Origin: Escherichia coli
Lineage (GTDB): Bacteria; Pseudomonadota; Gammaproteobacteria; Enterobacterales; Enterobacteriaceae
Strand: one strand, 5' to 3'
Assembly: GCF_003334405.1 (NCBI RefSeq)
Contig: NZ_QOWM01000020.1
Length of the DNA stretch: 60,030 nt
In this document: piece by piece, positions 16,440 to 59,934 of the stretch
Numbering within the stretch: the stretch's first letter is position 1
Layout of the letters: every line of letters starts with the position of its first letter
Program-made: the position numbers and the translations under genes
The notes under the pieces: model-generated
Seen by the model: the letters and a program-made list of their open reading frames with translations, nothing else
Databases searched by the model: none
What the model was told of the DNA's origin: nothing

Positions 16440-16550
16440 TCATGCCGGATGCGGCATGAGTACCATATCCTTCCTGAAAATCGCGCAAATTCTATATATT
16501 GCAGAGATCATGTAGGCCTGATAAGCGAAGCGCATCAGGCAATGTTACAA
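16440..16550. repeat. REP (repetitive extragenic palindrome) elements
   Basis: REP-type palindromes (GCCGGATGCGGC; GTAGGCCTGATAAGCG...CGCATCAGGCA) between convergent glxK and allE. Confidence 0.7.
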
Positions 16551-16617
16551 AAAAAGCCACGGTATAAACCGTGGCAAAATCCAACATAGCTAAAAATAAT
16601 CAGGCGAGTGGTATGAC

Positions 16618-17403
16618 TTAAATCTCTACGTCGCGGTTACAATCTTTCGAGTAAATATAGCTGAACGCTTCACCACGCCCTACACCATAACCAGCCTGTA
16701 AAGAATAAGCGCCCATAAAGATGTAATCGCCTTTTTTCACCGGGATCCAGTTATTGTCGAGGTTATAAACCCCCTGACCGGAAAGAATATAGGCACCGTG
16801 TTCCTGAACGTGTGTTTCGATATAACCGTGGCTGGCACCTGGTGCAAAAGAGAGGATATGCATGTTCATATCAAAACCTAACTCTTTGGGCAGAAAATCC
16901 AGCAGAATAACATCGTCCATGCCTTCATAATGAATGCGTTCCAGTTCGCTGGCATTGCCAGAAACCAGCCACGGTGCATAGCCTTCTACCGGAACATAGC
17001 GGCGCTTATATAAAAAGATTTGGCTGTCTTCGGCCTGGGCGTTAACAAACGTCATTAAGGAGCCTGGCGGGCAATAAAGATAGCCACCTTCGCTTAAGGC
17101 AAATGTTTTGCCTTCGGCTTTGGCAGTGATATTTCCAGAGATCACATACAGGAACGTTTCAATGCCTTCGCCACCGAAGCCCTGTTGGTTGCCACCGTTT
17201 TGATGCAGTGTGACCAGATAATCAACAAAAGAGGCACCCAGCTTTGGCGTGGAGAGGATTGTCGCGTCACAATTTTCAAAGCCCGGAATAATATTTTTTA
17301 CCAGACCATCCGGGGTTAACAGTGCGAAATTACCGTGTTTAACAATCGCACGGTTAGCCAGTAAATCTTCGCGGTAACCGGTGACGTTATTTAAATATCC
17401 CAT
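16618..17403 (-). CDS. allE: (S)-ureidoglycine aminohydrolase, bicupin
   Basis: 261 aa; synteny. Confidence 0.9.
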   Translation of the reverse strand: MGYLNNVTGYREDLLANRAIVKHGNFALLTPDGLVKNIIPGFENCDATILSTPKLGASFVDYLVTLHQNGGNQQGFGGEGIETFLYVISGNITAKAEGKTFALSEGGYLYCPPGSLMTFVNAQAEDSQIFLYKRRYVPVEGYAPWLVSGNASELERIHYEGMDDVILLDFLPKELGFDMNMHILSFAPGASHGYIETHVQEHGAYILSGQGVYNLDNNWIPVKKGDYIFMGAYSLQAGYGVGRGEAFSYIYSKDCNRDVEI

Positions 17404-17413
17404 TTATGACTCC

Positions 17414-18649
17414 TTATTTCTGCCAGGCAAGTTGATAAAGCATGAGTGCCAACGTTTTGACCCCTTCGGCAAGGTCGGTAATATTGGTGCGTTCCGCCGG
17501 GTTATGGCTGATCCCGTTGATGCTGGGGATAAAAATCATGCAGGTTGGTACGCGAGGCGCGAAAATTTGCGCGTCGTGCCCGGCACCACTGTGCATCACC
17601 CGGTAATTCAGTTTTTCTCTTTCACACAATTCTGTCAGGGTGGCGACCAGCTCCTTATTCATCGGCACGGGTTCTTCGTCCATCCATAAATCGATATCAA
17701 TACCAATGTCCATTTCATCGCAAATCGCCCGCATGTCGTTTTCTAACTGTTGGGTGAAATCGCGCAGCACGGCAGCGTCGGTATGACGACAATCAATGGT
17801 GAACGTGGTTTTACCCGGCACCACATTTACCGTATTCGGGCGCGGCTCTACTTTGCCAAAGGTCAGAACCAGCGGATCGCCCATCCTTTTCGCTTTTTCG
17901 ACCGACTGATGGCAAATGCGACTGAAAGCGTAAACTGTATCACGACGATAACCCATCGGCGTGGTGCCTGCATGGTTTGATTCGCCGTTCAGCGTTACCG
18001 TATAACGACGCTGCCCGACAATTGCATTCACCACGCCAATTGATTGCCCATTACTTTCCAGCACACAGCCCTGTTCAATATGCAGTTCAACAAAGGCTTT
18101 AATATCCTGACGCGGAGTTAGTGGGGCGTTCGGAAGAGTAAATCCGCAAGCCTTCATCGCATCGACAAAACTATTTCCTTTGGCATCACAGATATTCCGC
18201 ACGTCGTCAGGATTCGCCAGCCCAAAAATATTTTTACTGCCCCAGAAGACATACGGGAAGCGGCTGCCTTCTTCTTCTGCCATCGCCACCACTTCGACCG
18301 TACGTAGCGGCGCGCCGTATTGCGTTTTCAGCCAGTCAATTGCCAGCCACGCCGCCAGCGCGCCGAATTGCCCGTCAAGGTTACCGCCGTTAACCACGGT
18401 ATCGATATGCGAACCGCTCAGAACCACTTCCTGTGGATATTCGGTGCCATTCAGGCGACCGTATAAATTCCCCACTTCATCGAAACGTGTTTCCAGCCCG
18501 CTTGCTGCCATTCTTTTTTTAAATTGCTGCTGGGTTTCCAGCCATTCCGGCGAATAAAGTAAACGGGTCATCCCACCCGCTGGGTCAGCGCCAAAAGAGG
18601 AAAGCCAGGGCAGCGTTTCTTCTATAGCTTGACGGAAATGTGTAATCAT
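17414..18649 (-). CDS. allC: Allantoate amidohydrolase (M20 peptidase family)
   Basis: ~411 aa from MITHFRQAIE. Confidence 0.9.
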   Translation of the reverse strand: MITHFRQAIEETLPWLSSFGADPAGGMTRLLYSPEWLETQQQFKKRMAASGLETRFDEVGNLYGRLNGTEYPQEVVLSGSHIDTVVNGGNLDGQFGALAAWLAIDWLKTQYGAPLRTVEVVAMAEEEGSRFPYVFWGSKNIFGLANPDDVRNICDAKGNSFVDAMKACGFTLPNAPLTPRQDIKAFVELHIEQGCVLESNGQSIGVVNAIVGQRRYTVTLNGESNHAGTTPMGYRRDTVYAFSRICHQSVEKAKRMGDPLVLTFGKVEPRPNTVNVVPGKTTFTIDCRHTDAAVLRDFTQQLENDMRAICDEMDIGIDIDLWMDEEPVPMNKELVATLTELCEREKLNYRVMHSGAGHDAQIFAPRVPTCMIFIPSINGISHNPAERTNITDLAEGVKTLALMLYQLAWQK

Positions 18650-18670: not shown

Positions 18671-19720
18671 TTATTGCGCAAAGGGATTTTTCGTTTCGTA
18701 TGACGTGTTATAAAGCGCGTCGGAAATTAAATACTGGTAAATATCATCAACAATTTCGATGCCTTCGACGGCGGCTTTGCGTTGTTTAATATCCTGATCC
18801 TGTCCGGGATAATAAACCTGATTAAAACCGGGCGCGGGGGTAATGGCATTTAATTCGCGCATGGTCTGGCTAAGATGTTGACGGAATAATTCGCTGGAGG
18901 AGAAAAAGTTCGGATTAATAACTATATGTAATTGCCCCAAATTACGCCCTGCGTGTAAATCGTCATACATCGAACTAACCTGTCGCCCGAACGGTAAGCC
19001 GAGTAAGACGCCTGAGAGGACGTCAATCATCATCATCAGGCCATACCCTTTTGGCCCGGCGGCGGGGAGCAGAGCATGTACCGCGAACGGATCGGTTGTT
19101 GGTACACCGTTTTTATCGACCGCCCAGGTATCCGGGATAGACATATTACGCGAGCGGGCGTCGAGCACTTTTCCCCATGCCTGTACGGTAGTCGCCATAT
19201 CAAAGGTAAGGATCTCGTCGCCTTCTCCCGGCGCGGCAAAGGCCAGGGGGTTAGTACCGTAGTAAATTTCCGCGCCGCCAAACGGCACCACCATTGGATC
19301 GGACTGGCACATCGAAATGCCAATGAATCCGGCGCGGGCTGCCTGCTGCACAAAATAAGAGATTGCGCCGCTGTGACCCATCCGGCTGATACCGACCACC
19401 GCAACGCCATTTTGCTGGGCGGTTTTGATGGCATGTTCCATACCCATTTTCGCCGCGACCTGTCCGGCGGCATTGTCGGCATGTAAAATTGCCGAGCACG
19501 GCCCGGTTTCCTCAAGACGAAACTCCGGTTCGCGGTTGGTGCCGCCTTTTGAAATGCGTTCCGCGTAGTATTCCACGCGCACCGCGCCATGAGAGTGGAT
19601 CCCTCTGGCATCGGCGTAAACCAATACTTCAGCCACGGTTGCAGCGTGCTCACGTTTTAACCCAGCCTGGCAGAGTTTATTCTCAATTAGCTGGTGGAGT
19701 GTTTCCCGACTGATTTTCAT
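18671..19720 (-). CDS. allD: Ureidoglycolate dehydrogenase
   Basis: 349 aa; synteny. Confidence 0.9.
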   Translation of the reverse strand: MKISRETLHQLIENKLCQAGLKREHAATVAEVLVYADARGIHSHGAVRVEYYAERISKGGTNREPEFRLEETGPCSAILHADNAAGQVAAKMGMEHAIKTAQQNGVAVVGISRMGHSGAISYFVQQAARAGFIGISMCQSDPMVVPFGGAEIYYGTNPLAFAAPGEGDEILTFDMATTVQAWGKVLDARSRNMSIPDTWAVDKNGVPTTDPFAVHALLPAAGPKGYGLMMMIDVLSGVLLGLPFGRQVSSMYDDLHAGRNLGQLHIVINPNFFSSSELFRQHLSQTMRELNAITPAPGFNQVYYPGQDQDIKQRKAAVEGIEIVDDIYQYLISDALYNTSYETKNPFAQ

Positions 19721-20036
19721 CTGTCTTCCTTTTTAACGACGGTGTGAAGCATGACTGCAATTAACATACAGGGAAAATATCTGGATTATGTGATCCAGAC
19801 AGGCAAGAAAATATAGTTAGAATTTATTTGATAATCCGCTCACTTTTAACCTGATTTTTAAAACAACCACGCTTATTAAAAAATAATGAGTAATAGCCTG
19901 GCGGTTATTTGAATTCTTTTGTTAATAATTCCTGTGTGATATTCATCACCTTATTTACTCGTTGTCATCGATACCGTAATCGCCACATTAACACTGCTCG
20001 TGCAATTGCCATGGGTGCAATTTTTAAGGAGTTGTT

Positions 20037-21704
20037 ATGATCCACGCCTTTATTAAAAAAGGGTGTTTTCAGGATTCGGTCAGTTTAATGATTATTTCAC
20101 GAAAACTCAGCGAATCAGAAAATGTTGATGATGTTTCCGTAATGATGGGTACGCCCGCCAATAAAGCGTTATTAGATACCACAGGTTTCTGGCATGACGA
20201 TTTTAATAACGCCACGCCGAACGATATTTGCGTGGCAATTCGTAGCGAAGCGGCGGATGCGGGGATCGCGCAGGCGATTATGCAGCAGCTTGAAGAGGCG
20301 CTAAAACAACTGGCGCAGGGGTCAGGCAGCAGCCAGGCGTTGACGCAGGTGCGTCGCTGGGACAGTGCCTGTCAGAAATTACCCGACGCCAGTCTGGCGC
20401 TGATTTCAGTGGCTGGCGAGTATGCGGCGGAGCTGGCGAACCAGGCGCTGGATCGCAACCTCAACGTGATGATGTTCTCCGATAACGTCACGCTGGAAGA
20501 TGAAATCCAACTTAAAAGCCGCGCGCGGGAAAAAGGCTTGCTGGTGATGGGGCCGGACTGCGGTACGTCGATGATTGCCGGCACGCCGCTGGCTTTTGCT
20601 AACGTGATGCCGGAAGGCAATATTGGCGTCATTGGCGCTTCCGGTACCGGGATTCAGGAACTGTGTTCGCAGATTGCGCTGGCAGGGGAGGGAATTACTC
20701 ACGCGATTGGCCTTGGCGGGCGCGACCTCAGCCGTGAAGTGGGCGGCATCAGTGCGCTGACGGCGCTGGAAATGCTCAGTGCAGACGAGAAAAGCGAAGT
20801 GCTGGCATTTGTTTCAAAACCGCCTGCCGAAGCTGTGCGTCTGAAAATTGTTAATGCCATGAAAGCAACCGGCAAACCGACGGTGGCGCTGTTTTTAGGT
20901 TATACCCCGGCGGTGGCCCGCGACGAGAATGTCTGGTTTGCCTCCTCGCTGGATGAGGCCGCACGCCTGGCTTGCCTGCTTTCACGCGTTACGGCGCGAC
21001 GTAACGCGATAACGCCTGCCAGCAGCGGATTTATTTGCGGTTTGTATACCGGCGGTACCCTGGCTGCCGAAGCGGCGGGATTACTTGCTGGACACCTTGG
21101 CGTGGAAGCCGACGATACCCATCATCACGGCATGATGCTCGACGCCGATGGTCACCAGATTATTGACCTCGGCGATGATTTCTACACCGTCGGGCGTCCC
21201 CATCCGATGATCGACCCAGCCTTACGCAATCAGTTAATTGCCGATCTCGGCGCTAAACCGCAAGTGCGCGTATTGCTGCTTGATGTCGTGATTGGCTTCG
21301 GTGCGACCGCCGATCCTGCCGCCTCGCTGGTAAGCGCCTGGCAAAAAGCCTGTGCTGCGCGTTCAGACAATCAACCACTGTATGCCATTGCCACGGTGAC
21401 AGGCACTGAACGTGACCCGCAATGCCGCTCGCAGCAAATCGCCACGCTGGAAGATGCGGGGATCGCGGTAGTGAGTTCGCTGCCGGAAGCCACCTTGCTG
21501 GCGGCGGCACTGATTCGTCCGCTTTCGCCTGCCACTCAGCAACACACACCGTCATTACTGGAAAACGTCGCCGTGATTAACATCGGATTACGCAGCTTTG
21601 CGCTGGAGCTACAAAGCGCCAGCAAACCGGTTGTGCATTACCAATGGTCGCCAGTCGCCGGCGGCAATAAAAAACTGGCTCGTTTATTAGAACGTTTGCA
21701 ATAA
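20037..21704 (+). CDS. fdrA: FdrA, succinyl-CoA-synthetase-alpha-like/CoA-binding protein; proposed subunit of oxamate carbamoyltransferase
   Basis: 555 aa; synteny with ylbE/ylbF/ybcF. Confidence 0.85.
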   Translation: MIHAFIKKGCFQDSVSLMIISRKLSESENVDDVSVMMGTPANKALLDTTGFWHDDFNNATPNDICVAIRSEAADAGIAQAIMQQLEEALKQLAQGSGSSQALTQVRRWDSACQKLPDASLALISVAGEYAAELANQALDRNLNVMMFSDNVTLEDEIQLKSRAREKGLLVMGPDCGTSMIAGTPLAFANVMPEGNIGVIGASGTGIQELCSQIALAGEGITHAIGLGGRDLSREVGGISALTALEMLSADEKSEVLAFVSKPPAEAVRLKIVNAMKATGKPTVALFLGYTPAVARDENVWFASSLDEAARLACLLSRVTARRNAITPASSGFICGLYTGGTLAAEAAGLLAGHLGVEADDTHHHGMMLDADGHQIIDLGDDFYTVGRPHPMIDPALRNQLIADLGAKPQVRVLLLDVVIGFGATADPAASLVSAWQKACAARSDNQPLYAIATVTGTERDPQCRSQQIATLEDAGIAVVSSLPEATLLAAALIRPLSPATQQHTPSLLENVAVINIGLRSFALELQSASKPVVHYQWSPVAGGNKKLARLLERLQ

Positions 21705-21713
21705 GGGGTTCCC

Positions 21714-22973
21714 ATGTTTACATCAGTGGCGCAAGCCAATGCTGCGGTTATCGAACAAATTCGTCGCGCTCGTCCACACTGGCTGGATGTGCAACCGGCT
21801 TCTTCACTTATCAGCGAACTAAACCAGGGCAAAACACTGCTTCACGCCGGGCCGCCAATGCGCTGGCAGGAGATGACCGGACCTATGAAAGGGGCGTGCG
21901 TGGGCGCATGTCTGTTCGAAGGTTGGGCGAAAGATGAAGCGCAGGCGCTGGCAATACTGGAGCAGGGGGAAGTGAACTTCATTCCTTGTCACCATGTGAA
22001 TGCCGTCGGGCCAATGGGCGGTATTACTTCTGCCAGTATGCCGATGCTGGTGGTCGAGAACGTGACCGACGGCAACCGGGCGTACTGCAACCTCAACGAA
22101 GGTATCGGCAAAGTGATGCGTTTTGGCGCTTATGGCGAAGATGTCCTGACTCGCCATCGCTGGATGCGCGATGTGTTAATGCCAGTATTAAGCGCGGCGC
22201 TGGGGCGCATGGAGCACGGTATCGATCTCACGGCGATGATGGCGCAGGGCATTACCATGGGCGATGAGTTCCATCAACGCAATATTGCTTCCTCAGCACT
22301 GTTAATGCGTACGCTGGCCCCACAAATTGCTCGCCTCGATCATGATAAACAGCACATTGCGGAAGTGATGGATTTCCTCAGCGTGACCGATCAGTTCTTC
22401 CTCAACCTCGCGATGGCCTACTGCAAGGCGGCGATGGATGCTGGCGCGATGATCCGCGCAGGCAGCATCGTTACGGCTATGACCCGCAACGGCAATATGT
22501 TCGGGATTCGGGTAAGCGGGCTGGGTGAACGCTGGTTTACTGCGCCTGTAAACACTCCGCAAGGTCTGTTTTTCACCGGCTTCTCGCAGGAGCAGGCGAA
22601 CCCGGATATGGGCGATAGCGCGATTACCGAAACCTTTGGTATCGGAGGTGCGGCAATGATCGCAGCGCCTGGCGTAACGCGCTTTGTCGGTGCGGGTGGC
22701 ATGGAAGCGGCCAGGGCGGTATCTGAAGAGATGGCGGAAATTTACCTTGAACGCAATATGCAGTTGCAGATCCCAAGCTGGGATTTTCAGGGCGCCTGCC
22801 TGGGACTGGACATTCGTCGCGTGGTAGAAACCGGTATTACGCCACTCATCAATACCGGTATCGCCCATAAAGAGGCGGGGATCGGGCAGATTGGCGCAGG
22901 CACCGTGCGGGCACCGCTGGCGTGTTTTGAACAGGCGCTGGAAGCACTGGCTGAAAGCATGGGGATTGGTTGA
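21714..22973 (+). CDS. ylbE: DUF1116-family protein, uninterrupted reading frame
   Basis: 419-aa continuous ORF; I recall it as frameshifted in MG1655. Confidence 0.85.
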
Positions 22974-22983
22974 GGAACGCACA

Positions 22984-23799
22984 ATGACGATCATCCATCC
23001 TCTGCTTGCCAGTAGTAGCGCACCGAATTATCGCCAGTCCTGGCGGTTAGCGGGAGTGTGGCGACGGGCGATTAACCTGATGACGGAAAGCGGCGAACTG
23101 TTAACGCTGCATCGTAAGGGTAGTGGTTTCGGCCCCGGAGGATGGGTGCTTCGCCGCGCGCAATTCGATGCGTTATGCGGTGGATTATGCGGCAATGAAC
23201 GACCGCAGGTTGTGGCTCAAGGGATTCGCCTCGGGCGTTTCACGGTTAAACAGCCACAGCGTTATTGTTTGCTGCGTATTACGCCGCCTGCGCATCCTCA
23301 ACCGCTTGCAGCTGCATGGATGCAACGCGCGGAGGAAACCGGGCTTTTCGGGCCACTGGCGATGGCGGCAAGCGATCCGCTGCCCGCTGAATTACGCCAG
23401 TTTCGTCACTGTTTTCAGGCCGCGCTCAATGGCGTTAAGACCGACTGGCGGCACTGGCTGGGTAAAGGACCCGGATTAACGCCAAGTCATGATGATACGC
23501 TGAGCGGAATGCTGCTGGCGGCCTGGTATTATGGCGCTTTAGATGCGCGCTCTGGTCGCCAGTTTTTTGCCTGTTCCGACAATCTTCAACTCGTTACCAC
23601 AGCGGTGAGCGTCAGTTATTTACGCTACGCCGCGCAAGGATATTTCGCCTCGCCACTCCTGCACTTTGTTCATGCTCTGAGTTGCCCGAAACGTACCGCT
23701 GTTGCGATTGATTCGCTGCTGGCGCTGGGGCACACGTCAGGGGCAGATACGCTGCTGGGGTTCTGGCTTGGTCAACAATTATTACAAGGAACACCATGA
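22984..23799 (+). CDS. ylbF: YlbF, conserved protein of the fdrA-ylbE-ylbF cluster
   Basis: 271 aa from ATG 22984 with GAGGAA RBS; stop overlaps the ybcF start. Confidence 0.8.
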
Positions 23800-24689
23800 A
23801 AACACTGGTTGTAGCTCTTGGGGGCAACGCCTTACTCCAGCGCGGCGAGGCGCTGACGGCAGAAAATCAATATCGCAATATCGCCAGTGCTGTACCCGCG
23901 CTGGCGCGCCTGGCCCGTTCTTATCGGCTGGCGATTGTTCACGGCAACGGGCCGCAGGTGGGGCTGCTGGCATTGCAGAATCTGGCGTGGAAAGAGGTAG
24001 AACCGTATCCGCTGGATGTGCTGGTGGCGGAAAGCCAGGGGATGATTGGCTATATGCTGGCACAGAGTTTGAGCGCACAGCCGCAGATGCCGCCCGTGAC
24101 GACGGTGCTGACGCGCATTGAGGTTTCGCCTGATGATCCGGCGTTTTTGCAGCCAGAGAAATTTATTGGTCCGGTTTATCAGCCAGAAGAACAAGAGGCA
24201 CTGGAAGCGGCTTACGGCTGGCAGATGAAACGTGATGGTAAATATTTGCGCCGGGTGGTGGCGTCTCCGCAACCGCGTAAAATTCTCGACAGCGAAGCCA
24301 TCGAGTTGTTGCTCAAAGAGGGGCATGTGGTGATTTGCAGTGGCGGCGGCGGTGTGCCTGTGACGGAAGATGGGGCAGGGAGTGAAGCGGTGATTGATAA
24401 AGATCTCGCTGCTGCGTTGCTCGCTGAGCAGATTAACGCCGATGGGCTGGTGATCCTCACTGATGCTGATGCGGTATATGAAAACTGGGGAACGCCGCAG
24501 CAACGCGCCATTCGCCATGCCACACCGGATGAGTTAGCGCCATTTGCCAAAGCCGATGGTTCGATGGGGCCGAAGGTAACGGCGGTGAGTGGTTATGTCA
24601 GAAGCCGTGGTAAACCCGCGTGGATTGGGGCGTTATCGCGAATTGAAGAGACGCTGGCGGGCGAAGCGGGGACCTGTATTTCGCTGTAG
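23796..24689 (+). CDS. ybcF: Carbamate kinase-like protein (ArcC paralogue)
   Basis: 297 aa; amino-acid kinase fold start [18 protein letters not shown]. Confidence 0.85.
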
Positions 24690-24699
24690 TCGTAGGCAT

Positions 24700-24880
<181 letters not shown>

Positions 24881-38095: not shown

Positions 38096-38172
38096 GCGCC
38101 CTTAGCTCAGTTGGATAGAGCAACGACCTTCTAAGTCGTGGGCCGCAGGTTCGAATCCTGCAGGGCGCGCCA
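38096..38172 (+). tRNA. argU: tRNA-Arg (anticodon UCU)
   Basis: 77-nt cloverleaf GCGCCCTTAGCTCAGTTGGATAGAGC...CTTCTAAGTCG...GGTTCGAATCCTGCAGGGCGCGCCA with anticodon loop cuUCUaa and encoded CCA. Confidence 0.9.
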
Positions 38173-38217: not shown

Positions 38218-38979
38218 TCACCACATCACTTTTTGTCGCTGTTTGGCGAGATAATTCAACGGTGTCAGGCCGTAAAACGCCTTAAAAACAGAGATAAAGT
38301 ACGACGTGCTGCTATAGCCACATAATTGCGCCACCTGAGTGATATTTTTGTTATCCATCAATAACATCTGTACGGCGTAACGCATACGACACTCTGTGAC
38401 AATCTGGCTATAGCTGGTATTTTCGTTTTTTAATTTCTTTTTGAGCAGGCTGGGGCTTAAACATAGCGAACTGGCGACAATTCGCAGATTCCAGTAATGC
38501 TGAATATCGCTTTGAATAATGCGGCAGACGCTGTCGCGGACGCTGCTGCGTAAGATATACATCAGTAGGGCAATAAACCGCGATTGCTCAAGAAAGTTAG
38601 ACAATACGGTAAAAAGCAATGCGCGCGTCAACTCCGCTTCGCAGGGTCTGCTGGGTTGCTGCTTGCTGTGGTTGGCGGCTAGCCGGAACACTTCCGGTGT
38701 ACGGCTATGACAAGCGATAACCGGGGTTGCCAGCCGCGACCAGGGCTTTACACAGGTTAAGTTCTTATTTAAAAACAACAGATAATCGTTGATGATGTTA
38801 CGGTTGATGTGGGTGATTAATACGTGATTTAACGTTGAGAGTTCAATGACGTTATTGTTGCACGCGAAGGCGGCCAGGTAGTTTTTCGGAAGGGTAAACG
38901 TAGCATGGTTATTGACGCTTACCTCTACCTCTTTTTCGGTCAGGATCACCACGCAAGGTTCACTGCTGCTCAATTGCAT
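38218..38979 (-). CDS. envY: AraC-family transcriptional regulator (porin thermoregulation)
   Basis: 253 aa; C-terminal AraC-type HTH. Confidence 0.85.
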   Translation of the reverse strand: MQLSSSEPCVVILTEKEVEVSVNNHATFTLPKNYLAAFACNNNVIELSTLNHVLITHINRNIINDYLLFLNKNLTCVKPWSRLATPVIACHSRTPEVFRLAANHSKQQPSRPCEAELTRALLFTVLSNFLEQSRFIALLMYILRSSVRDSVCRIIQSDIQHYWNLRIVASSLCLSPSLLKKKLKNENTSYSQIVTECRMRYAVQMLLMDNKNITQVAQLCGYSSTSYFISVFKAFYGLTPLNYLAKQRQKVMW

Positions 38980-59338: not shown

Positions 59339-59639
59339 TTATGTTGGCGTTTTCTATTCAGTATAGAAGTCGGAGCGGCTGGGCGAGATGCGGAAGTTCT
59401 GGAATGTTTCTTTTTTTTGGTGATGGTGAACTGATGGTGCCTGAAGCAATTTGGCTACTTTTGCAATGTGACAAGTTATGGCAGTGCTGACTGGTGGCGA
59501 AGAATTTTGACGATTGAGTCATGCAGAAAAAAACGGGTTCAGCTTCAGTTGATTAAATGAGGAGTGAGAAGTCCGAAACAGGACTCACTGTATAAATAAA
59601 CAGCTATTTTGTTGAGGAAGGGTAAGATAACGGCGGGTG

Positions 59640-59705
59640 CCTGAAGCTTTCCGGTTTCAGGTTTACTCTGAGGTCTGGAAAGATGAAGCCCCAGGAGATA
59701 TTTCT
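59640..59705 (-). ncRNA. sokE: Putative Sok-type antisense RNA (sokE), position approximate
   Basis: Inferred only from hok/sok architecture (antisense to the mok leader/start); no independent signal seen in the sequence. Confidence 0.2.
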
Positions 59706-59781
59706 ATCAACCCTGGGGCTGCCACTCCAAACCCGAACAATTTGGATGGTAGTCCCTTCTTCGCATGGAGGCAATATAAAC

Positions 59782-59934
59782 ATGCTGACGAAATATGCCC
59801 TTGCGGCAGTCATAGTGCTGTGTTTAACGGTGCTGGGATTTACGCTTCTGGTCGGAGACTCGCTGTGTGAGTTTACGGTGAAGGAACGTAATATTGAGTT
59901 TAAGGCTGTTCTCGCTTACGAACCGAAGAAGTAG
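59782..59934 (+). CDS. hokE: Hok-family type I toxin (small membrane peptide)
   Basis: 50-aa [53 protein letters not shown]; the in-frame upstream extension (59683) corresponds to the mok-like leader ORF. Confidence 0.85.

Follow-up and report, generated by a model that had tools for sequence, protein, structure and literature searches.

An intact allFGHK operon in an Escherichia coli chromosome and its difference from K-12 at AllK residue 260

Organization of the locus and its control region

The stretch of DNA analyzed here (the window, 60,030 nt) is E. coli chromosome. From position 37 to 44689 it is 99.987% identical to strain PK6 with a fixed offset of 36, and this near-identity at a constant offset allowed the PK6 annotation to be transferred to the window. 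Positions 20037–24689 hold four intact, closely spaced genes on the + strand, fdrA, ylbE, ylbF and ybcF, and none of their translated frames contains an internal stop. The features of the locus are as follows.

16618–17403, − strand: allE, (S)-ureidoglycine aminohydrolase (PK6 annotation transfer, offset +36, and ORF)
17414–18649, − strand: allC, allantoate deiminase/amidohydrolase (PK6 annotation transfer and ORF)
18671–19720, − strand: allD, ureidoglycolate dehydrogenase (ORF and transferred annotation)
19721–20036, unstranded: allD–allF intergenic control region, 316 nt
20037–21704, + strand: allF (fdrA), 555 aa, predicted oxamic transcarbamylase (OXTCase) subunit
21714–22973, + strand: allG (ylbE), 419 aa, predicted OXTCase subunit, uninterrupted
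21965–21969, + strand: run of five G (G5) in ylbE, site of the historical K-12 "frameshift" (G4 allele)
22984–23799, + strand: allH (ylbF), 271 aa, predicted OXTCase subunit
23796–24689, + strand: allK (ybcF), 297 aa, predicted catabolic carbamate kinase
24573–24575, + strand: ybcF codon 260, AAG (Lys), in a GSMxPK motif
24710–24832, unstranded: two REP-like direct copies, 53 nt each, 89% identical

An earlier note on this DNA had described four packed, co-directional genes with 10-nt gaps. The layout and the second gap stand (10 nt from the ylbE TGA to the ylbF ATG), but the junction as read from the sequence places only 9 nt between the fdrA TAA and the ylbE ATG (GGGGTTCCC). The ylbF TGA overlaps the ybcF ATG in an ATGA at 23796–23799, as had been noticed, and each of the four starts is preceded by a Shine–Dalgarno-like purine run. 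Gaps of 9 and 10 nt and a 4-nt overlap are consistent with a single transcript in the window. The genes ybcF and purK are convergent. The two REP-like copies lie in the 194-nt spacer that separates them, and a terminator scan of this spacer detected no canonical intrinsic terminator 3′ of ybcF.

The four genes had also been said to follow allD. They are indeed adjacent to it, but allD lies on the − strand, so that the operon and allDCE point away from each other on either side of the 316-nt region and the operon is not transcriptionally downstream of allD. In allDCE the third gene is allE, which together with allC encodes upstream pathway steps. The wider neighborhood is that of the allantoin regulon, with allS, allA, allR, gcl, hyi, glxR, allW, allB, ybbY, glxK, allE, allC and allD. 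Activation of the allF promoter by AllS and ArcA has been shown in MG1655 (Kim & Kim 2025, PMC12535856), and the corresponding predicted AllS/ArcA region is present upstream of allF in the window: the fragment bound by AllS in electrophoretic mobility shift assays (EMSA; −203/−144) maps to 19834–19893 and the fragment bound by phosphorylated ArcA (−142/−83) to 19895–19954. Alignment of the intergenic region with that of MG1655 gives 313 of 316 identical positions, with single-nucleotide differences at 19807, 19868 and 19902. Because the second of these falls within the AllS fragment and the third within the ArcA fragment, regulation in the window strain could differ in degree from that in MG1655. 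A sigma-70 consensus scan returned three promoter-like sites where 3.8 are expected by chance, and we assigned no promoter.

The operon is core to E. coli, and its chromosomal position is fixed in essentially all strains. The 4,653-nt region finds a match in 5,424 of 5,426 complete genomes, with 5,408 of these matches covering at least 80% of it, and it is 100% identical to the corresponding region of many natural E. coli isolates.

Assignment of the four gene products

All four proteins belong to curated families and align without gaps to their MG1655 counterparts. AllF matches NCBIfam NF004760 (1043.6 bits), is identical to MG1655 FdrA at 545 of 555 residues, contains the Pfam domains CoA_binding (PF02629, E = 2e-11) and Ligase_CoA (PF00549, E = 6.3e-35), and has a solved match in PDB entry 3DMY. 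AllG (416/419 identical to MG1655 YlbE) matches PF06545, "Oxamate carbamoyltransferase subunit AllG" (E = 1.9e-97). Its homolog of solved structure, PDB entry 3CLQ, is listed as an "uncharacterized protein" (E = 2.9e-111); the single-sequence AlphaFold2 model of AllG has a mean pLDDT of 42, which makes it unusable for fold comparison. AllH (267/271) matches PF11392, "Oxamate carbamoyltransferase subunit AllH" (E = 2.1e-29), and two motifs are invariant among 56 homologs, G160-x-G-x-G-L-T-P-x-x-D-D and G249-H-T-S-G-A-D-x-x-x-G. Its AlphaFold2 model has a pLDDT of 95.7, and comparison of this model with solved structures returned no informative relative. AllK (295/297) scores 621.1 bits against NF006926 (cut-off 416) and 426.7 bits against TIGR00746 arcC (cut-off 358.25), and matches carbamate kinases in the PDB with E values of 1.3e-89 to 3.7e-37, the closest solved chain being 8CRV. 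The window thus differs from K-12 by 19 substitutions, 10 in AllF, three in AllG, four in AllH and two in AllK.

A chance run of open reading frames, or a function outside allantoin metabolism (defense or a mobile element, for example), has no point in its favor. Matches of all four proteins far above family thresholds, the absence of any match to PADLOC defense-system models and the fixed chromosomal position argue against it, and we regard it as vanishingly improbable.

The four genes are almost certainly the allFGHK operon, which serves the oxamate branch of allantoin (purine) breakdown under anaerobic conditions. In this pathway AllD would oxidize ureidoglycolate to oxalurate, the substrate of AllFGH; the AllF–AllG–AllH heteromer (FdrA–YlbE–YlbF) would act as an oxamic transcarbamylase, with phosphorolysis of oxalurate yielding oxamate together with carbamoyl phosphate; and AllK (YbcF) would use carbamoyl phosphate and ADP to give ATP and carbamate, the latter decaying to NH3 and CO2. 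OXTCase activity would need each of the three subunits, the four genes would be carried on one transcript, and transcription would require both AllS (the allantoin signal) and ArcA (anaerobiosis), each binding the allD–allF intergenic region.

The steps of this pathway have been demonstrated by others in MG1655, the source of all the published biochemistry and genetics. Purified AllF–AllG–AllH has OXTCase activity, oxamate production is lost in ΔallF, ΔallG and ΔallH mutants, and complementation of ΔallG with allG alone failed, giving 0 mM oxamate (Kim & Kim 2024, PMC11326118). YbcF, once purified, acts as a catabolic carbamate kinase, and RT-PCR in MG1655 shows one transcript for the four genes (Kim & Kim 2022, PMC9843812). 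The window contains adjacent genes of the FdrA, PF06545 (AllG/DUF1116) and PF11392 (AllH/DUF2877) types, which is the OXTCase gene set, and their ungapped identity and syntenic position make them orthologs of the characterized MG1655 allF, allG and allH. Given that the proteins are 98–99% identical without gaps, that gene order and junctions are alike and that only three single-nucleotide differences separate the control regions, we infer that the window proteins share the MG1655 functions, OXTCase catalysis included. The earlier note was thus right to propose an oxamate carbamoyltransferase made of FdrA, YlbE and YlbF and a carbamate kinase in YbcF; the experiments that it called for had already been published (PMC11326118, PMC9843812), so that the assignment is no longer a hypothesis. 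The carbamate kinase was assigned to its gene in 2022, and in 2024 allFGH were found to account for the long-orphan activity oxamate carbamoyltransferase (EC 2.1.3.5); Pfam, the newer PGAP annotations and metagenome studies already use the names.

A different division of labor has been proposed, in which FdrA is an acyl-CoA synthetase or oxamate:CoA ligase acting after the transcarbamylase, and YlbE and/or YlbF alone make up the OXTCase. It was put forward with CanOE in 2012 (PMC3364942) and is implied by the PGAP name "acyl-CoA synthetase FdrA". The CoA_binding and Ligase_CoA domains speak for it, as does similarity to the succinyl-CoA synthetase (SCS) alpha subunit (NCBIfam, E = 4.3e-14; BLASTP to SucD, E = 6e-9). 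AllF residues 118–290 align with SucD 66–238, that is, with the CoA-binding and flavodoxin-like ligase-CoA domains. However, the alignments to SucD and to the archaeal SCS alpha subunit 2YV2 end at G288-Y-T290, equivalent to G-V-T238 of SucD, and so stop before the phosphohistidine loop M-G-H246-A-G-A; in these alignments the approximately 25 SucD residues that carry this loop have no AllF counterpart, and the sequence after residue 290 (PAVARDENVWFASSLDEAARL) contains no GHAG. Nor does the operon encode an ATP-grasp partner: NCBIfam and Pfam scans found no ATP-grasp family in any of the four proteins, and BLASTP found no similarity between FdrA and SucC, the SCS beta subunit. Genetic and biochemical results also disagree with a ligase role, since ΔallF makes 0 mM oxamate, a ΔallFGH strain given allGH regains only ~16% of wild-type oxamate, and activity was measured on a purified three-protein preparation for which carbamoyl phosphate and oxamate are the only named substrates (PMC11326118). 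We consider a ligase role for FdrA very improbable.

Lacking, as judged from sequence, both the phosphohistidine loop and an ATP-grasp partner, AllF is more plausibly an SCS-alpha-like scaffold that has lost the loop than a CoA ligase, and the PGAP name is misleading for a protein without that loop. A global MAFFT alignment pairs AllF GHLG352–355 with GHAG; this pairing is probably an artifact and falls inside a second Ligase_CoA-type domain at 336–491, which AllF has in addition to an extra ~80 N-terminal residues. This second domain might correspond to the C-terminal domain of the SCS beta subunit, an idea taken solely from the Pfam Ligase_CoA match. By analogy with the conversion of succinyl-CoA and Pi to succinyl phosphate, it is possible that AllF supplies a phosphate/acyl site for phosphorolysis of the carbamoyl–N bond. 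SucD and the NDP-forming acyl-CoA synthetases share CoA-binding and ligase-CoA domains with AllF, whereas AllF, without loop or ATP-grasp partner, works as a transcarbamylase subunit. The classical transcarbamylases (PyrB, ArgF/ArgI, YgeW) belong to the same reaction class as OXTCase, reversible carbamoyl transfer between phosphate and an amine or amide N, but need one or two gene products where OXTCase needs three (PMC11326118). They have no sequence relationship to it; Pfam scans found neither OTCace_N nor OTCace domains in AllF, AllG or AllH, in line with the conclusion of PMC11326118.

The ylbE frameshift in K-12 records

The continuous 419-codon ylbE frame reported in the earlier note is present at 21714–22973. 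The same note took the gene to be frameshifted in MG1655 and suggested that a pathway cryptic in the reference may be functional in this strain. If ylbE were broken in the K-12 reference, the oxamate branch would be cryptic there and the window strain would be unusual in its functional copy. One base is indeed missing from older K-12 records: the G5 run at 21965–21969 is a G4 run in them, the loss of one G truncates YlbE after 85 codons, and the W3110 record NC_007779.1 annotates the gene as "frameshifted". In NC_000913.3 (MG1655), however, ylbE is an intact 1260-nt coding sequence that aligns to the window without gaps. Correction of the reference presumably came with the U00096.3 release.

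The G4 allele belongs to older K-12 sequence versions. No more than 5 of the 5,426 complete genomes match it exactly, and the four listed are the W3110 record and three K-12 derivatives whose coordinates resemble those of the old MG1655 sequence. The missing G of the G5 run is listed at 547,832 (Lyons 2011, Table S5), and CanOE in 2012 noted that no other E. coli had the frameshift and judged it a probable sequencing error (PMC3364942). MG1655 itself converts 19.5 mM allantoin to 17.7 mM oxamate, and ΔallG makes none (PMC11326118). A broken ylbE is thus refuted for MG1655, and we hold a cryptic reference pathway to be highly unlikely. Because ylbE is intact in NC_000913.3 and the G4 allele is so rare, an uninterrupted ylbE is the norm and not a property of this strain. 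Nearly all E. coli, the current K-12 reference included, have the operon in intact form, and its recognition in the window is correct but ordinary. The "ylbE pseudogene in K-12" goes back to older sequence versions and provides no argument for strain differences.

Residue 260 of AllK

The allFGHK operons of K-12 and of the window agree in gene content, gene order, junctions and chromosomal position. Among the 19 substitutions and three promoter differences that separate the two, the notable one is at AllK residue 260, which is Lys in the window and Asn in K-12. K202-D203 and K260 of the window protein, the last in a GSMGPK motif, correspond to K209, D210 and K271 of the Enterococcus faecalis carbamate kinase. 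Lys209, Asp210 and Lys271 of that enzyme are catalytic or nucleotide-binding residues, and Lys271 (Lys278 in Giardia) is salt-bridged to the nucleotide beta-phosphate and to Asp210 (PMC3659122, PMC3474736). Among the alignments listed, Lys occupies the equivalent position in all five solved carbamate kinases. The window AllK has this conserved residue (AAG), as do all six of the diverse non-K-12 E. coli sampled; the K-12 protein lacks it, with Asn (AAT) in every K-12-lineage genome among the matches listed.

The only AllK that has been characterized is the K-12 Asn260 protein, expressed from an ASKA clone, with a Vmax of 1.8–1.9 U/mg and a Km(ADP) of 0.43 mM (PMC9843812). For comparison, Lactococcus lactis ArcC1 reaches 310–330 U/mg and the E. 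faecalis enzyme has a Km(ADP) of 0.04 mM. The ArcC carbamate kinases (E. faecalis 1B7B/2WE5, Pyrococcus furiosus 1E19, Giardia 3KZF) share the amino-acid-kinase fold family and the reaction with AllK. They differ in the source of carbamoyl phosphate, which is ornithine transcarbamylase for ArcC and the oxalurate-cleaving enzyme for AllK, and in gene context, allK being clustered with allantoin genes and the ArcC genes with arcAB.

We therefore put forward, tentatively and at slightly less than an even chance, that the real difference between the K-12 and wild operons lies in allK rather than in ylbE, and that K-12 AllK is a hypomorph. The residue-260 difference is a new lead. If this reading is correct, natural E. 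coli such as the window strain would obtain considerably more ATP through the oxamate branch, and the K-12 allele would explain in part why ΔybcF has almost no phenotype in MG1655. That the K-12 AllK behind the enzyme's published kinetics has an Asn at a conserved active-site Lys position matters for modeling and engineering the ATP yield of purine catabolism.

Organization and distribution of the allFGHK operon

The genes fdrA (allF), ylbE (allG), ylbF (allH) and ybcF (allK) occupy window 20037-24689 as four plus-strand open reading frames, exactly where the earlier note had placed them, and no internal stops are present in any of the four translations. A Shine-Dalgarno-like run lies ahead of every start. 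The cluster is tightly packed, as the earlier note had said: ylbE and ylbF are 10 nt apart and ylbF overlaps ybcF as ATGA; the fdrA/ylbE gap is 9 nt rather than 10. The cluster had also been said to follow allD; allD is instead on the minus strand, and allDCE and the cluster are thus transcribed away from each other, with 316 nt of intergenic DNA between them. The surrounding genes are those of the allantoin regulon: allS, allA, allR, gcl, hyi, glxR, allW, allB, ybbY, glxK, allE, allC and allD. Within this cluster, the glxK-allE spacer contains Rfam gathering-score matches to two sRNAs.

Allantoin-cluster features within the window
16477-16519, ES036 sRNA (Rfam, 38.1 bits)
16545-16611, STnc480 sRNA (Rfam, 87.6 bits)
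18671-19720, minus strand, allD (ORF table and annotation of strain PK6)
20037-21704, plus strand, fdrA, 555 aa (ORF table)
21714-22973, plus strand, ylbE, 419 aa (ORF table)
22984-23799, plus strand, ylbF, 271 aa (ORF table)
23796-24689, plus strand, ybcF, 297 aa (ORF table)

The 4,653-nt region 20037-24689 is matched in 5,424 of 5,426 complete RefSeq genomes, with coverage of at least 80% in 5,408; many natural isolates, ML35, UMNF18 and PK6 among them, share it at 100% identity. The window is E. coli chromosome. Because PK6 aligns to window 37-44689 at 99.987% identity with a constant offset of 36, its annotation is directly transferable. On the 3' side, ybcF and purK are convergent, and their spacer is filled by a pair of REP-like direct copies, each of 53 nt and 89% identical to the other, and a repeated GCCGCATCCGGCAA (window 24710-24832); no canonical intrinsic terminator was found 3' of the operon in this spacer.

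Elsewhere in the window, its start holds the 3' part of rhsD (37-898), frameshifted according to the PK6 record; ybbC and an incomplete RHS core fragment come next. A tRNA-Arg at the argU position (38096-38169) is followed within ~50 nt by envY (38218-38979); the DLP12 prophage, appY and ompT, which lie between the two in K-12, are absent in this strain. Beyond the cus genes, near the window end, an Rfam match to the sok antitoxin RNA (59635-59790, 84.4 bits) implies a hok/sok-type toxin-antitoxin locus.

Function and control of the encoded pathway

The proposal that FdrA, YlbE and YlbF form an oxamate carbamoyltransferase (OXTCase) and that YbcF is a carbamate kinase is correct, but it is already experimentally established in MG1655 (PMC11326118, PMC9843812) and incorporated in databases. 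The match of FdrA to NCBIfam NF004760 spans the full length (1043.6 bits), and YbcF scores 621.1 bits with the carbamate kinase equivalog NF006926, whose cut-off is 416. YlbE and YlbF fall into former DUFs that are now named as oxamate carbamoyltransferase subunits, AllG (Pfam PF06545, E 1.9e-97) and AllH (PF11392, E 2.1e-29), respectively, and newer PGAP annotations call the ylbF product "oxamate carbamoyltransferase subunit AllH family protein".

According to the CanOE proposal of 2012 (PMC3364942), ylbE, ylbF and fdrA were candidates to encode the oxamate carbamoyltransferase, then an orphan enzyme, and ybcF to encode the carbamate kinase. Kim & Kim (2022) showed that purified YbcF is a carbamate kinase with a Vmax of 1.82-1.94 U/mg and a Km of 0.47 mM towards carbamoyl phosphate and 0.43 mM towards ADP, detected a single four-gene transcript by RT-PCR and proposed the name allK (PMC9843812). 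Purified AllF-AllG-AllH has OXTCase activity, its Km being 1.3 mM with carbamoyl phosphate and 36.9 mM with oxamate, and only allFGH together restored the wild-type level (Kim & Kim 2024, PMC11326118). By 2025, a metagenome study was using allFGHK as routine annotation (PMC12625717). Every check that the earlier note proposed is thus already in published work, all of it in MG1655.

In the pathway established by others, AllD supplies oxalurate, AllFGH phosphorolyses it to oxamate and carbamoyl phosphate, and AllK yields ATP plus carbamate, the latter breaking down to NH3 and CO2. Ungapped alignment of the window and K-12 proteins gives 545/555 identical residues for AllF, 416/419 for AllG, 267/271 for AllH and 295/297 for AllK. 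Anaerobiosis together with allantoin is needed for allF'-'lacZ expression, as are AllS and ArcA, which bind the -203/-144 and -142/-83 fragments, respectively (Kim & Kim 2025, PMC12535856). The control region is identical to that of MG1655 at 313 of 316 positions.

Single-nucleotide differences from MG1655 in the allD-allF intergenic region (alignment)
19807, intergenic region
19868 (-169), C in this strain, inside the published AllS-binding EMSA fragment
19902 (-135), C in this strain, inside the published ArcA-P-binding EMSA fragment

Because proteins and control region are near-identical, we infer that the operon in the window carries the K-12 functions: AllD would produce oxalurate, AllFGH would phosphorolyse it to oxamate and carbamoyl phosphate, and AllK would convert the latter to ATP and carbamate, with decay to NH3 and CO2.

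The name that PGAP gives to the product of 20037-21704, "acyl-CoA synthetase FdrA", appears to be incorrect. Residues 118-290 of AllF can be aligned with residues 66-238 of SucD, the succinyl-CoA synthetase (SCS) alpha subunit, but the alignment stops just before the SucD phosphohistidine loop (MGH246AGA), to which nothing in AllF corresponds. No ATP-grasp partner is encoded in the operon, as judged from family searches of the four proteins and from comparison of FdrA with SCS beta. The missing loop and partner make "acyl-CoA synthetase" an apparent misnomer; judged from the alignment, AllF keeps only a predicted CoA/phosphate-site scaffold. By analogy with the conversion of succinyl-CoA and Pi to succinyl phosphate, this scaffold could serve as the site for phosphorolysis of the carbamoyl-N bond. 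AllG has an uncharacterised homologue of solved structure (3CLQ, E 2.9e-111). In AllH, residues D170, D171, T205, H250, S252 and D255 are invariant.

The ylbE reading frame

The earlier note contrasted the uninterrupted ylbE with a frameshifted copy in MG1655 and suggested that this strain may have a working form of a pathway cryptic there. Neither claim is supported by comparison with the current reference (NC_000913.3), where ylbE (b4572) is annotated as a normal CDS of 1260 nt that aligns to the window gene with zero gaps; the pathway is demonstrably active in MG1655. The frame depends on a run of five G (G5) at ylbE nt 252-256 (window 21965-21969), and computed deletion of one G leads to a stop after 85 codons. 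Of 5,426 genomes, only 5 contain an exact copy of a 60-mer carrying the resulting G4 allele; four of these were listed, namely W3110 (NC_007779.1) and, with old MG1655-like coordinates, strains CIT, LIM and CAR. The other genomes listed have at least one difference from this 60-mer (at most 98.4% identity), as a G5 run would give. The frameshift named in the earlier note belongs to a superseded sequence version, and intact ylbE is the species norm. In the W3110 RefSeq record NC_007779.1 (L003, 2278-3536), where the G4 allele persists, ylbE is still annotated as a "frameshifted" pseudogene.

Lysine or asparagine at AllK residue 260

One of the two positions at which AllK differs between the window and K-12 is residue 260, which is Lys here (AAG, window 24573-24575) and Asn in MG1655 (AAT). 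Counted from the D208-K209-D210 register in the HMMER alignment, this residue is equivalent to Lys271 of the E. faecalis enzyme, in the GSMxPK motif, and is Lys in all five solved carbamate kinases with alignments shown. Structures of the Giardia and E. faecalis enzymes show the Lys at this position in salt bridges with the nucleotide beta-phosphate and Asp210. A 61-mer with AAG matches exactly in 2,435 genomes, O157:H7 among them, versus 357 for the AAT version, the best 60 of which are all K-12 laboratory derivatives; six of six strains drawn from the other identity bands (042, ATCC 25922, AR_0015, 0H15, RM14723 and a UTI isolate) also carry AAG. Lys260 of the window is the consensus allele, and the K-12 difference does look real.

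The published AllK kinetics were obtained with the K-12 ASKA clone (Kim & Kim 2022, PMC9843812), and the sole characterised E. coli AllK is the Asn260 variant. Its ~1.9 U/mg is ~170-fold below the 310-330 U/mg of L. lactis ArcC1 (PMC7818446), a gap that, as the assays differ, is only suggestive. K-12 AllK may be a hypomorph. The Lys260/Asn260 contrast is the only item here that might merit a bench test.
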